Shown here: in pieces, positions 7,657 through 12,326 of the stretch
How positions within the stretch are numbered: position 1 is the first letter of the stretch
How the letters are laid out: each line of letters starts with the position of its first letter
Origin: a virus
Taxonomy: Duplodnaviria; Heunggongvirae; Uroviricota; Caudoviricetes
Length of the DNA: 12,326 nucleotides
Virus record (IMG/VR): IMGVR_UViG_2693429700_000004
Strand: one strand, 5' to 3'
Made by a program: the position numbers and the translations under genes
Notes under the pieces: model-generated
Told to the model about the DNA's origin: nothing
Seen by the model: only the letters and a program-made list of their open reading frames with translations
Databases searched by the model: none

Positions 7657-7789
7657 ATTCATTACGATATGGGAATTCCCATATCGGGTAAAAACGGTTT
7701 GCGGTAAAGCGAGAGTTAAGTAGAATTGCTGCGGGTGCTTGAGGCTATCTGCCTCGGGCATGCCACCGTAAGGCAGACAGAGAAAAGCC

Positions 7790-7890
7790 CCAGTTAACAT
7801 TACGCGTCCGGCAAGACGCTTAACATTAATCTGAGGCCATATCTATGCTCTACACACGTAGGTTAGCCTCTTACGGACCGAAAGGTCAAG
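7790..7890 (-). ncRNA. sok: predicted Sok-like antisense RNA region (coordinates approximate)
   Basis: Inferred from hok/mok architecture. Minus-strand TTGACC (complement of 7885-7890) is a possible -35; the mok leader contains hairpins and a direct repeat TTAACATTA. Boundaries are not resolved from sequence. Confidence 0.3.
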
Positions 7891-8051
7891 GAGAAGCAGG
7901 CTATGAAGCAGCAAAAGGCGATGTTAATCGCCCTGATCGTCATCTGTTTAACCGTCATAGTGACGGCACTGGTAACGAGGAAAGACCTCTGCGAGGTACG
8001 AATCCGAACCGGTCAGACGGAGGTCGCTGTCTTCGTAGACTACGAATCTGA
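7845..8051 (+). CDS. mok: Mok-like overlapping reading frame (modulation of killing) of the hok locus
   Basis: 68-aa ORF starting upstream of hok and overlapping it in another frame, the canonical hok/mok arrangement. Confidence 0.55.
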   Translation: MLYTRRLASYGPKGQGEAGYEAAKGDVNRPDRHLFNRHSDGTGNEERPLRGTNPNRSDGGRCLRRLRI

Positions 8052-8058
8052 GAAGTAA
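7903..8058 (+). CDS. hok: Hok/Gef-family type I toxin (HokD/RelF-like), 51 aa
   Basis: Translation MKQQKAMLIALIVICLTVIVTALVTRKDLCEVRIRTGQTEVAVFVDYESEK matches the Hok family as I recall it, nearly identical to HokD/RelF except the C-terminal tail. AAGGAGAAG RBS. Not in the ORF track. Confidence 0.85.
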   Translation: MKQQKAMLIALIVICLTVIVTALVTRKDLCEVRIRTGQTEVAVFVDYESEK

Positions 8059-9217: not shown

Positions 9218-9507
9218 TGGTGGATTTACGTAAAGCGGCGCGGGGGCAGATGTGCACCGTCAGAATTCCTGGCTACTGCAATCACGATCCGGAAACGTCT
9301 GTGCTGGCGCATTACCGACTGGCGGGAACGTGCGGAACAGCGATAAAGCCACACGATATGCAGGCAGCGATTGCCTGTAGCTCGTGCCACGATTTAATCG
9401 ACGGGCGGGTAAAAACCGGCGATTACACCAAAGAAGAATTACGCCTGATGCATGCAGAAGGTGTTTTTCGCACACAAGAAATCTGGAGAAAGGAGGGATA
9501 TTTATGA
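9217..9507 (+). CDS. ybcO: DUF1364 / YbcO-like Cys/His-rich putative nuclease
   Basis: 96-aa ORF with spaced Cys/His residues (C13, C21, H23, C54, C57, H58); start overlaps the upstream stop (TAATG). Size and position match ybcO. Confidence 0.6.
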   Translation: MVDLRKAARGQMCTVRIPGYCNHDPETSVLAHYRLAGTCGTAIKPHDMQAAIACSSCHDLIDGRVKTGDYTKEELRLMHAEGVFRTQEIWRKEGYL

Positions 9508-10058
9508 TTTACCCAACGAATACAGGAAAAAGCGGAGAACACCTTCGTCTCACCACGCTGGAAAGTGTCTGGATTCAGGGAAAACTACGTATGTGGGGGC
9601 GCTGGTCGTATATTGGCGGCGGTAAGACGGGAAATATGTTTAACCAGTTGCTGACCTCTAAAAAGCTAACAAAAACGGCAATTAATGAGGCGCTCCGGAG
9701 GATGAAAAAAGCAGGTCTGGACAAACCTGAACTTGAGGCTTTTTTGCGGGATATGATCAACGGCAAGCAAAAAAGCTGGCTGGTGCATTGTACTGATGCA
9801 GAGGCGTTATGCATTGATCGGGTGATTAGTGAAGTGCTGGCAGAACACCCAGGATTGATTTGTATCCTCCGGCAAAGATATGAAGGGCGGGGGATGAGTA
9901 AGCGCAAAATGGCTGAATTGCTAAATGATGCACACCCTGAGTGGTGTTTTCGGACGTGCTGCAGTCGGGTAGATGTATGGCTAAATCTTGCTGAATATAT
10001 GCTCTATCTGCCGATGCGTGATGCATTCTCTTCCGGGTATTTAAAAACTGTCTGTTGA
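9504..10058 (+). CDS. late-gene antitermination protein Q-like
   Basis: ATG 9504 with AGGAGGG RBS (track start 9384 overlaps the previous gene and is unlikely). Last nin gene; a strong promoter overlaps its stop and a short terminated leader follows, the pR'/tR' arrangement. Contains a Cys cluster (CFRTCCS). Assignment is mainly positional. Confidence 0.55.
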   Translation: MIYPTNTGKSGEHLRLTTLESVWIQGKLRMWGRWSYIGGGKTGNMFNQLLTSKKLTKTAINEALRRMKKAGLDKPELEAFLRDMINGKQKSWLVHCTDAEALCIDRVISEVLAEHPGLICILRQRYEGRGMSKRKMAELLNDAHPEWCFRTCCSRVDVWLNLAEYMLYLPMRDAFSSGYLKTVC

Positions 10059-10084
10059 CTCAATCTGTTATCCGGGGCTATATT
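10055..10084 (+). promoter_or_regulatory. pR'-like late promoter
   Basis: TTGACT (10055-10060), 18-bp spacer, TATATT (10079-10084); overlaps the stop codon of the Q-like gene. Confidence 0.45.
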
Positions 10085-10146
10085 CCTCACGCGCCAGCAA
10101 AATCTGGCGTCGGGATTAGGAACCCCGGATAGAGACCGCGACAGAC

Positions 10147-10170
10147 ACACGCCGCGAGCGTGTTTTTTAT
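10147..10170 (+). terminator. tR'-like intrinsic terminator about 80 nt downstream of the late promoter
   Basis: ACACGC-CGCGA-GCGTGT hairpin followed by TTTTTTATT. Confidence 0.55.
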
Positions 10171-10331
10171 TGTCGTATGCACGCGCACATCTGAATTATG
10201 GTGGGGCGTATGGGGGAGCTGAAAAGCTCGCCGGTTGGTTTCCCGGTAGTTCCTAACCCTGTACGTCTCACCACCCGATGATTAGGAACCTGACGGTGGT
10301 GATGGTTTAGAAACCACCAGAGGGCGTCATT

Positions 10332-10913
10332 ATGACAACTCAAATTTCTGTTGAAACTCTCTCCCCGATCACCCATAACCAGATTCCTGTTATTACCACC
10401 GAACTTTTGGCGCAGTTGTACGGTGCTGGAGTTAAGAACATTCAAAATAACTACGCCAGAAATGCTGAGCGCTTTATTGAAGGAAAGCATTTTTTCAAAG
10501 TGGCTGGCGATGCCCTGAAAAATTTGCGGGTAGCTTTAAACTACTCACAAAATTTGCAACCATCTTTAAGAGGGTTACAAATTTCCCCGAAAGCCCGCTC
10601 CCTCATCCTCTGGACAGAACGCGGAGCAGCCCGTCATGCCAAAATGCTGGAAACCGATCAGGCGTGGGATGTGTTCGAAAAGCTGGAAGACTGCTATTTC
10701 AGACAAAAGGATCCGTCAGCGCCAGTTTCATGCCAGAAAAGTTACGACACGCGAGTTCTCTGTTATCAGAGAGGCGGTGTCACTGTTTCCACAATTCAGT
10801 TACGGGATGATGATATTGTTATTTCCCTTGAGTCATGGCTGGAACTGGCGAGAGCCAATGGTTGGTTTGTTGTTCGCAGAGATAAACTGGTGGAAAGGTT
10901 GATGCAGCTTTAA
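10332..10913 (+). CDS. ORF6N-domain (antirepressor-like) protein
   Basis: 193-aa ORF with AGAGGG RBS; N-terminal segment TELLAQLYGAGVKNIQNNYARNAERFIEGKHFFKV resembles the ORF6N/antirepressor N-domain as I recall it. Confidence 0.55.
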   Translation: MTTQISVETLSPITHNQIPVITTELLAQLYGAGVKNIQNNYARNAERFIEGKHFFKVAGDALKNLRVALNYSQNLQPSLRGLQISPKARSLILWTERGAARHAKMLETDQAWDVFEKLEDCYFRQKDPSAPVSCQKSYDTRVLCYQRGGVTVSTIQLRDDDIVISLESWLELARANGWFVVRRDKLVERLMQL

Positions 10914-11011
10914 AAAAGTTCTTGCATTTTTGCACATAAACTGCTTCAATTCCTGTTTGCTTCGCAAAGCTGTATCGCGAGGCGAAACGCAAGTTTTTTT
11001 CGCACAAGGAA

Positions 11012-11034
11012 GCCACCGGAAGGTGGTTTTTTTG
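11012..11034 (+). terminator. intrinsic terminator
   Basis: CCACC-GGAA-GGTGG hairpin followed by T7; a weaker hairpin plus T-run lies just upstream at about 10985-11003. Confidence 0.55.
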
Positions 11035-11156
11035 TGTCCGTAATATACAGCAGCGCAATAAATTCGCTGGTGGTTATTAATACCGTTCTTTCAGCTTGCT
11101 GGCTTTTTCGACAAGAGTTATTGGTATGTCACGTTAACCGGAAAGGGTAAAAAGAC

Positions 11157-11354
11157 ATGCTGAAACAGCAGGATATGACAGAAACCGCCAGAGTTGTGTT
11201 TGATGAATTAAGCGTTACCGAACCGGCGACAGTCGGGGAGATTGCGCAGAATACTTACCTTTCACGCGAACGCTGCCAGTTAATACTGACCCAGCTGGTT
11301 ATGGCGGGTCTGGCAGACTATCAGTGCGGTTGTTACAGACGCATTCAGTCCTGA
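11157..11354 (+). CDS. small putative winged-helix DNA-binding protein (65 aa)
   Basis: ORF MLKQQDMTETARVVFDELSVTEPATVGEIAQNTYLSRERCQLILTQLVMAGLADY with an HTH-like core; weak RBS. Confidence 0.4.
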   Translation: MLKQQDMTETARVVFDELSVTEPATVGEIAQNTYLSRERCQLILTQLVMAGLADYQCGCYRRIQS

Positions 11355-11489
11355 AGGCTTTTTATTTGTGGTAAATGGGCGGCTGGTGGGGGGGGCGGCA
11401 CCTGTCAGTCCTTTGCTTATGTGTTGATGATAATTTACCTTTTGGGGCTATAATTGAGCTAACCAATTGCTAATGAAAGTAAAATTATA

Positions 11490-12203
11490 ATGGCTGTTGT
11501 CTGTTCAGTTATCATGGTTTGCTCCCCAATTAATATTTTTCTTGAAAAGGATACGTTGTCACTTAAGCCAGGCTCAGTCGTTCTGGCCACCAAATGCATC
11601 AGGGAGCTTTTCCTTATGCATTATGGCAAAGTTAAAATTGTCGATATAAGCGAATCCGTCGTAAGTCAATATCTGGAAAGTCAGCATAAGCTGACGAGGA
11701 CTCGTCTGACTGACATTCCGCTTTACCTGTTGCTGGAACCCAACAATCCTGCGTTGGCTGCGGCTTTAATTACCAGCCAGGGATTTTCCGGAGAGGTCAC
11801 GGATATGTTTCTTATGATGGCCTGCCTGTCTCTGTTTGAAACAGATGAACGGATGTCATTGTTTTTAAGTGGATGTTTATCCAGCATAAGTGCCAAAGTC
11901 AGGGCGATAATTCAGACAGATATATCAGCAAGCTGGACGCTTGGTGCGATTGCTCTACAGTTGCATATGAGTGAGAGTTTGTTAAAGACAAAACTGAAAA
12001 ATGAAGGGGGCATGTTCAGTCGCTTGTTGCTGGAAGAGCGGATGCGTGTTGCTGTAAATATGTTATGTTCCCGGCATGGATATGGACAGGCTGTAGCAGA
12101 AAAATGCGGTTATTCAAGCAGGTCCTACTTTATTTCTGTATTTCACCGCTATTATGGCTTCCCGCCAGACAGATATGTATCCAGGCAAGGGCTTGATTAT
12201 TGA
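11490..12203 (+). CDS. AraC/XylS-family transcriptional regulator (AppY/YdeO/GadX/PatE-like)
   Basis: 237-aa ORF whose C-terminal HTH region (YGQAVAEKCGYSSRSYFISVFHRYYGFPPDRY) has the AraC signature, and whose N-terminus (MAVVCSVIMVCS) recalls AppY. AT-rich gene and flanks suggest a horizontally acquired moron. Confidence 0.8.
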   Translation: MAVVCSVIMVCSPINIFLEKDTLSLKPGSVVLATKCIRELFLMHYGKVKIVDISESVVSQYLESQHKLTRTRLTDIPLYLLLEPNNPALAAALITSQGFSGEVTDMFLMMACLSLFETDERMSLFLSGCLSSISAKVRAIIQTDISASWTLGAIALQLHMSESLLKTKLKNEGGMFSRLLLEERMRVAVNMLCSRHGYGQAVAEKCGYSSRSYFISVFHRYYGFPPDRYVSRQGLDY

Positions 12204-12231
12204 TTTTCATCTGATTATTATTTTTTGGCTC

Positions 12232-12307
12232 GGCCCTTTAGCTCAGTGGTGAGAGCGAGCGACTCATAATCGCCAGGTCGCTGGTTCAAATCCAGCAAGG
12301 GCCACCA
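12232..12307 (+). tRNA. tRNA with CAU anticodon, ileX/ileY-like (tRNA-Ile2, lysidine) and diverged from the host copies; tRNA-Met not formally excluded
   Basis: 76-nt cloverleaf: acceptor stem GGCCCTT/AAGGGCC, D-loop AGCTCAGTGG, anticodon loop CTCATAA, T-arm GGTTCAAATCC, encoded CCA end. Resembles E. coli ileX/ileY as I recall it, with compensatory stem changes. Confidence 0.85.
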
Positions 12308-12326
12308 ACCGCCACTAGCTCATCAG

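Follow-up and report, generated by a model that had tools for sequence, protein, structure and literature searches.

A psrB-type regulator gene with a predicted promoter of its own in the Q-to-lysis slot of a lambdoid prophage, and a length-variable G run just upstream of it

The IMG/VR virus record IMGVR_UViG_2693429700_000004 (Caudoviricetes) is represented here by a stretch of 12,326 nucleotides, which we refer to as a whole as the window. Close to its right end there is a gene for a regulator of the AraC/XylS family, preceded by a run of eight guanines. In the list of open reading frames (ORFs) of the window the gene is an ATG-started frame of 237 amino acids (aa) at 11490-12203 on the plus strand, and its sequence suggests that it is an allele of psrB, a member of the Psr family of regulator genes known from enterohaemorrhagic Escherichia coli (EHEC), a name that we infer from genome coordinates and from the identity between paralogues. 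An initial annotation of the same DNA had described it as an AppY/PatE-like moron at the end of a prophage, and had pointed to the G run as a potential slipped-strand site that could vary the spacing of the promoter. The features on which the argument turns are these:

11490..12203, plus strand: psrB-type gene for an AraC/XylS regulator; YdeO/AppY-like domain at the N-terminus, double helix-turn-helix (HTH) at the C-terminus
11427..11454, plus strand: predicted sigma-70 promoter of psrB, with -35 ATGATA at 11427-11432, a 16-nt spacer and -10 TATAAT at 11449-11454; 10 of 12 consensus positions match
11428..12217, plus strand: psr-specific cassette, approximate, with its left edge at the -35 region and its right edge just 5' of a tRNA
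11388..11395, no strand assigned: G8 homopolymer, 94 nt before the ATG, the longest homopolymer of the 12.3-kb window

That the gene codes for an AraC/XylS-family regulator carried by a prophage is borne out by Pfam, where HTH_AraC (3.4e-13, in two stretches within residues 155-230) and HTH_18 (9.8e-10, over residues 155-230) both match above their gathering scores. By these matches, the protein has the C-terminal domain of about 100 aa with two HTH motifs that is typical of AraC/XylS factors. The best matches among curated families are YdeO and GadX, yet these are chromosomal and not prophage-borne; YdeO is the top NCBIfam match, over the full length at 1.3e-30, below the cutoff (107 against 348 bits), and the match to GadX (4.7e-25) is likewise far under the equivalog cutoff. 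The 237-aa protein also matches phrog_1450 at 4e-99, and it is found in exactly this form on 46 contigs. The ratio dN/dS in the Psr family is 0.28-0.44 overall and 0.17-0.27 in the DNA-binding (HTH) half, and the family is thus under purifying selection, which is stronger in that half. The gene had been called AT-rich, and moderately so it is, with 44.0% GC against 47.7% for the whole window; the 135-nt intergenic stretch in front of it has 41.5% and the adjacent ORF 50.5%, so that the gap between the psr gene and the neighbouring phage genes is modest.

The protein WP_000301797.1 of the O157:H7 strains Xuzhou21 and EDL933 is identical to the window protein at 236 of 237 residues (99.6%), the sole substitution being H195 in the window and Y195 in O157, and the 135-bp upstream region with the G8 is the same in EDL933 without any difference. 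In the re-sequenced genome of EDL933 (CP008957) this protein is encoded at 1,905,274-1,905,987, a position that falls inside the published coordinates of O-island 57 (OI-57; 1,849,324-1,929,825, PMC8565820), the island in which reviews put psrB (z2104) (PMC10877973, PMC8565820), and we therefore take it as PsrB (Z2104). The full-length ORF ECs_1087 of strain Sakai, which lies in Sp4 and was named psrA by the Tree laboratory (PMC13502914), shows 91.1% identity to the window protein, with 21 aa differences that are mostly in the N-terminal domain. Between the two O157 paralogues identity is 90.7%; this fits the published identity of 90% between PsrA and PsrB (PMC10877973) and therefore supports the psrB naming. 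With close identity both to the OI-57 copy of EDL933 and to ECs_1087, the window gene belongs to the Psr family. Gene names were also looked for among the names of the protein cluster members, and none were there.

The likeness to these two systems extends to the neighbourhood. PsrB of EDL933 shares with the window a 65-aa ORF on the 5' side, an ileZ-like tRNA on the 3' side and the setting in a lambdoid late region, but the window has an isrK/C4/ORF6N anti-repressor module between Q and the 65-aa ORF, the tRNAs further 3' are Lys, Thr and Gly in the source-like genome and Arg in O157, and no PerC/Pch gene is annotated nearby in the former. PsrA (z1789 in the reviews) has a syntenic gene order and a nearly equal core promoter and 5' untranslated region, but differs in having GGGTGTTAG instead of the G run, and a gene for a CAAX protease where the window has the anti-repressor. 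Reviews place psrA in O-island 50, CP-933N (PMC10877973). In the re-sequenced EDL933 genome, the corresponding prophage (CP008957, 1636001-1686000, with nleL, espN and espK) is without an AraC gene between the antiterminator and TerB, and the placing given in the reviews may go back to the first assembly of that genome.

AppY (DLP12 of K-12) and PatE (Z0321), to which the gene had been likened, belong to the same family and share with it the domain layout, an alignment over the full length and an N-terminal M-x-x-x-C-S-V. The N-terminal MAVVCSV of the window protein aligns with AppY and with the PatE candidate, which supports the start codon at 11490. Both are prophage-borne and have been reported to act on GAD and acid-resistance genes (PMC10057817, PMC10877973). 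They are relatives and not orthologues, however: identity is 28% to AppY and 36% to Sakai ECs_0287, the candidate for PatE on account of its location at the distal end of Sp1, and both genes sit at distal prophage ends (of DLP12 and Sp1) beside the chromosomal junction, in contrast to the mid-prophage position of the window gene. YbcM, with 23% identity, was ruled out as an orthologue too.

The mid-prophage position can be read from a genome that continues where the window stops. From 11100 to its end at 12326 (1,227 bases) the window matches E. coli strain Z1323CEC0019 (locus L001) with 100% identity, and in that strain the order is repressor/cro, replication genes, a Q-like antiterminator (DUF1133), an ORF6N anti-repressor, the 65-aa ORF, the AraC gene, and then four tRNAs followed by holin, lysis genes, terminase and tail. 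It is thus only the window that ends next to the gene and not the prophage, as had been assumed, and we also rejected the idea that the tRNA marks a prophage end or an attachment site, the tRNA being the first of a phage cluster that is followed by lysis, terminase and tail genes. Sakai Sp4, Xuzhou21 and EDL933 likewise have psr between Q and the tRNA/lysis genes, and the same slot also holds Psr homologues of only 58-78% identity (L087-L090); in all of these, as in Z1323CEC0019, the gene belongs to the late regulatory region of a lambdoid prophage. The stx genes of Stx phages occupy the same Q-to-lysis interval, and in phage phiSTEC1575-Stx2k a psr-like gene is found immediately 5' of the tRNAs and stx2k. 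The neighbouring features in the window are as follows:

9504..10058, plus strand: Q-like late antiterminator (DUF1133), a coding sequence annotated by PGAP in L001 (offset 2901); phrog_753 at 4e-80
11157..11354, plus strand: 65-aa winged-helix-like ORF, phrog_331 (1e-36), with a weak Pfam match to TrmB (0.0029)
11341..11363, plus strand: weak terminator-like hairpin, GCATTCA-GTCC-TGAAGGC followed by T5, which overlaps the 65-aa ORF at its stop codon
12232..12307, plus strand: tRNA with anticodon CAT, ileZ-like (ARAGORN; Rfam tRNA), the first of the phage tRNA cluster 3' of psr

In the promoter and terminator scan the Q-like gene is followed by a pR'-like promoter at 10055-10084 and by a terminator at 10147-10163, and these three elements define the context as that of a late operon. 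The 65-aa ORF is a backbone gene that lies 3' of Q in psr-carrying prophages as well as in Stx2 phages, and was found in Stx2_95, phiP27 and L087-L089.

To see where the psr-specific DNA begins and ends, the annotated phages were searched with 11100-12326 of the window as query. Many Stx2 phages match only the first 291 bases of it (window 11100-11390), phiP27 matches the first 327 (to window 11426), and other phages match the tRNA end only, from query position 1119-1129 onwards (window 12218-12228). In Stx2_95, phiP27 and locus L089 a DNA methylase gene follows the 65-aa ORF instead of psr, and then come the tRNAs as here. Alignments of the junctions show a common backbone that consists of the tail of the 65-aa ORF, the hairpin terminator and a stretch starting with GGGCGGCTGGTGGGTGTTAGCGGCACC, and that continues until about 11427; beyond this point the psr and methylase cassettes are unrelated in sequence. 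As the backbone homology stops at about 11427, the psr cassette starts at the -35 region. The gene behaves like a moron, as the initial annotation had called it: related phages have a methylase in one and psr in another at a fixed slot, and together with a -10 hexamer that is conserved in the family this speaks for cassette-like behaviour. The methylase is about 350 aa long and of the N6/N4 type, and it occupies the exact psr slot in Stx2a phages, phiP27 and some prophages, as seen in L092 (2907-3965), L095 (1905-2963) and L089 (1860-2912). In L089 and L090 a methylase and a psr homologue are both present, in tandem.

The scan for promoters taken as a whole shows no enrichment, with 4 sites against 3.8 expected from shuffles, and it offers an alternative -35, TTGATG at 11424-11429, for the site in front of psrB. 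In the alignment of the family, though, TATA[A/C]T is found at a constant distance from the ATG in members that are 58-100% identical, and it is the flanking sequence that diverges; this conservation of the -10 is the best available support for the predicted promoter. Upstream of it, the hairpin at 11341-11363 is weakened by an A at 11343 in place of C: its predicted folding energy is -4.5 kcal/mol here and -11.2 kcal/mol in Sakai. This A is shared with EDL933, and the C is found in Sakai, Stx2 phages and phiP27; the T stretch of the hairpin is T5 here against T6. A strong terminator lies further 5', at 11002-11037 (-23.9 kcal/mol, z -6.2). On the other side of the gene, the terminator scan found none between psrB and the tRNA, and a promoter-like site at 12193-12221 lies ahead of the ileZ-like tRNA.

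We consider it highly probable that the locus is a moron-type cassette, inserted in the Q-to-lysis slot with psrB and a promoter of its own, and that the G run outside the core promoter most likely has no regulatory role. What such a cassette would do can be proposed from the literature on a protein that is 99.6% identical. PsrB, according to reviews, binds to the promoters of hdeA (-132 to -45) and gadE and raises acid resistance, and it lowers type III secretion of the enterocyte effacement locus (LEE) through GadE/YhiF (PMC10877973, PMC8565820). That prophage regulators of this kind act on the acid-resistance regulon of the host, as the initial annotation held, agrees with the binding of hdeA and gadE described for PsrB (PMC10877973). 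By analogy, a psrB allele in this variable slot, which has the Q antiterminator module on one side and the tRNA/lysis genes on the other, would be carried on a cassette that begins at about 11428 and brings its own putative sigma-70 promoter (-10 TATAAT at 11449-11454), and this promoter would allow expression in the lysogen independently of late transcription. The window PsrB would then bind AT-rich promoters of the GAD island (gadE, hdeA), with more acid resistance as the result and, in LEE-positive hosts, indirectly less type III secretion. YdeO, the best curated-family match, activates gadE. For psrA a response to silencing by Hha/H-NS has been reported (PMC13502914), and the AT-rich promoter and gene of psrB could fit as a target of silencing by H-NS/Hha too. 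The G8 in this scheme would be a derived and mutation-prone homopolymer in the backbone just 5' of the cassette, which now and then changes its length by replication slippage.

Some points weigh against this interpretation. Equating WP_000301797.1 with Z2104 is based on coordinates and on the 90% identity of the paralogues, and not on a locus tag, and the psrB promoter is a prediction only. The weakened terminator upstream of psrB may let read-through contribute to its expression. The neutrality of the G run is judged from its location and poor conservation, and is most likely rather than certain. The host may also be without LEE, and then the acid-resistance arm alone would apply.

The read-through just mentioned could be taken further. 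If psrB had no functional promoter of its own, it would be expressed only in the Q-dependent late transcript upon induction, or when transcription runs on from the 65-aa ORF, and it is indeed co-oriented with the late operon and lies 3' of the pR'-like promoter and its terminator, behind a hairpin that is weak, in a window where the promoter scan is not enriched. We hold this to be improbable, however, since an invariant -10 hexamer at a set distance from the ATG is found even in diverged members of the family, the edge of the cassette coincides with the -35 as expected of a moron with its own promoter, and the strong terminator at 11002-11037 lies upstream. The phenotypes from deletion and complementation of psrA and psrB moreover came from uninduced lysogens, according to reviews (PMC10877973, PMC8565820). 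It is more improbable still that the window copy is inert, a leftover of a prophage in decay that has no effect on the host. The prophage of Z1323CEC0019 that is 100% identical is broken by two copies of IS1203 and has several pseudogenes, but the psrB ORF is intact, with a product only one residue away from that of EDL933, the promoter region is the same as in EDL933, the family is under purifying selection, and the exact protein occurs on 46 contigs.

The G run itself lies where the initial annotation had put it, and its distance of about 95 bp from the start codon is 94 nt when counted exactly. It stops 31 nt before the predicted -35 ATGATA (11427) and 28 nt before the alternative TTGATG, which places it at about -66 to -73 relative to a predicted transcription start near 11461. 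It is outside any ORF and outside the psr cassette, within backbone DNA that is common to phages without psr. With such a position, a change in its length would not alter the spacing of the promoter, as had been suggested. Taken alone the G8 is statistically unremarkable, because 20% of mononucleotide shuffles of the window hold a run of at least 8 G or C. Its place is taken by GGGTGTTAG, the ancestral state, not only in the psrA upstream region but also in Stx2 phages, phiP27 and L089, the 78%-identical homologue has GGGTGCCAGGGGG at the site, and the 58-63% homologues have unrelated sequence there; the homopolymer is therefore derived in the psrB lineage and not a feature of the family.

The length of the run does vary. 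Among 80 IMG/VR loci, G6, G7, G8 and G9 all occur, and the length differs even between loci with identical flanks (250 bp upstream and 800 bp downstream), one group of which consists of 19 loci with G7 and one with G8, and a second of four with G8 and one with G9. Out of 5,426 complete E. coli genomes, 655 contain the upstream region. Alleles were counted in the complete genomes as the records with an exact match to synthetic alleles, and they distribute over two haplotypes:

haplotype TAAAT...CGGC (that of the window), queried for G7 to G9: G7 in 28 records, G8 in 287 and G9 in 13
haplotype TGAAT...CGAC, queried for G6 to G8: G6 in 8 records, G7 in 264 and G8 in 4

The count for the interrupted GGGTGTTAG allele is not comparable with these, being inflated by partial matches to the backbone of Stx phages. 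The modal allele makes up 87-96% of the records of a haplotype and non-modal alleles 4-12%, and O157:H7 strains bear G7, G8 or G9. Strain 86-24 has G9 in three records, two from NADC 86-24 derivatives and one from 86-24 itself, so this variant is real and stably inherited. Two widely used O157:H7 laboratory strains differ at the run, with G9 in 86-24 and G8 in EDL933. Of the idea of a slipped-strand site, the part that stands is that the length varies, from G6 to G9; one modal allele dominates each haplotype and the G9 is steady in 86-24, which argues against very fast switching.

Poly-G contingency tracts are known in promoters of Neisseria, Haemophilus and Campylobacter, and the run resembles them in being a stretch of eight G/C close to a promoter, with a length that varies by isolate. 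We know of no expression switch for the G run of the window. If the run were a phase-variable element of this kind, slipped-strand changes in length would alter the transcription of psrB, for example by shifting the helical phase of the core promoter relative to an H-NS filament or a factor bound upstream, and give heritable variants with high or low PsrB. The occurrence of G6-G9 even with identical 1-kb flanks, the share of non-modal alleles in the complete genomes and the difference between EDL933 and 86-24 could all be taken in its favour, and as psrA answers to the Hha/H-NS axis (PMC13502914), the architecture of the upstream DNA could matter. That the tract differs in length among close isolates is plain from these counts, but a contingency tract is expected inside an ORF, between -35 and -10 or at a defined regulator site, and by prediction this one is at none of them. 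It stops 31 nt short of the predicted -35, and the backbone around it is shared with phages that bear the methylase and not psr. Nor do paralogues conserve the homopolymer, which is lacking in psrA and in the 78%-identical homologue, and the 58-63% homologues are unrelated at the site. A run of this length is also unremarkable by composition, and with one allele dominating per haplotype and three records of G9 from 86-24, any switching must be slow. A dominant modal length per lineage fits with what ordinary replication slippage is expected to produce, a slow mutation rather than a fast phase switch. We thus think it improbable that the run is a contingency element, if only slightly less so than that psrB depends on late transcripts, and a passive homopolymer next to the psrB cassette is the explanation that we prefer.

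A search of the literature on poly-G phase variation in E. coli prophages gave nothing relevant. A structured RNA that contains the run was considered and rejected, as the fold of 11366-11425 is no better than that of shuffles (z -0.58), and in the intergenic region there was no match to Rfam families (small RNA or riboswitch), either at gathering thresholds or at E<=1. An 8-nt direct repeat, TCAGTCCT, stands on either side of the run (11345-11352 and 11405-11412); it is missing in the 78%-identical homologue and is likely due to chance.

The gene, its family, the prophage slot and the upstream DNA are already known from the characterised EHEC regulator PsrB. The corrected description is that of PsrB in a Q-to-lysis slot equivalent to that of stx, with the edge of the cassette at the -35 and a G run that is part of neither the cassette nor the core promoter. 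The length polymorphism of the run, its derived origin and its place relative to the edge of the cassette are the sole element that we did not find described, and a minor one. A speculative possibility, which we rate as doubtful as that of a contingency element, is that the derived run works as a slow evolutionary tuning knob, where changes of one base shift the helical phase or the geometry of H-NS/Hha nucleation, and where lineages with G7, G8 and G9 would differ heritably in PsrB, in GAD acid resistance and in repression of LEE. Were this true, a single-base indel would explain why EHEC lineages and laboratory strains differ in acid resistance and type III secretion, and natural alleles with G7, G8 and G9 already exist.

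Further features of the prophage deserve mention. The PerC-like (Pch) and T3SS-effector (type III secretion system) linkage of Psr prophages has been reported in reviews; it is no strict criterion, and was not seen in L001, where IS1203 disrupts the late region and no PerC/Pch gene is annotated within 14 kb. A PerC-family gene lies about 7 kb 3' of psr in Xuzhou21 and EDL933, and Sakai Sp4 has pchA. The two copies of IS1203 in the Z1323CEC0019 prophage are found in the early left arm (L001 1582-2795) and in the lysis region (16184-17397), and with its several pseudogenes this prophage is probably defective. The tRNA with the CAT anticodon is called Met by ARAGORN and tRNA-Ile in RefSeq, and is ileZ (ileZ1) in Sakai; the tRNAs after it are Lys, Thr and Gly in L001 (15133-15442) and an argN/argO pair in the prophages of O157 and in Stx phages.

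Between the Q-like gene and the 65-aa ORF, Rfam matches are found 3' of the pR'-like promoter to isrK (10091-10168), to the c4 a1/b1 target (10078-10131) and to C4 antisense RNA (10194-10278), and next after the last of these comes the ORF6N anti-repressor at 10332-10913 (phrog_2379). The region 10055-10913 looks like an anti-repressor control module of the P1 c4/ant type or the Gifsy-1 IsrK type, inserted in the late leader. Further upstream in the window there is a type I toxin-antitoxin system of the hok/sok kind, with a sok RNA at 7733-7905 (Rfam, 105 bits) and a 51-aa Hok/Gef ORF at 7903-8058.

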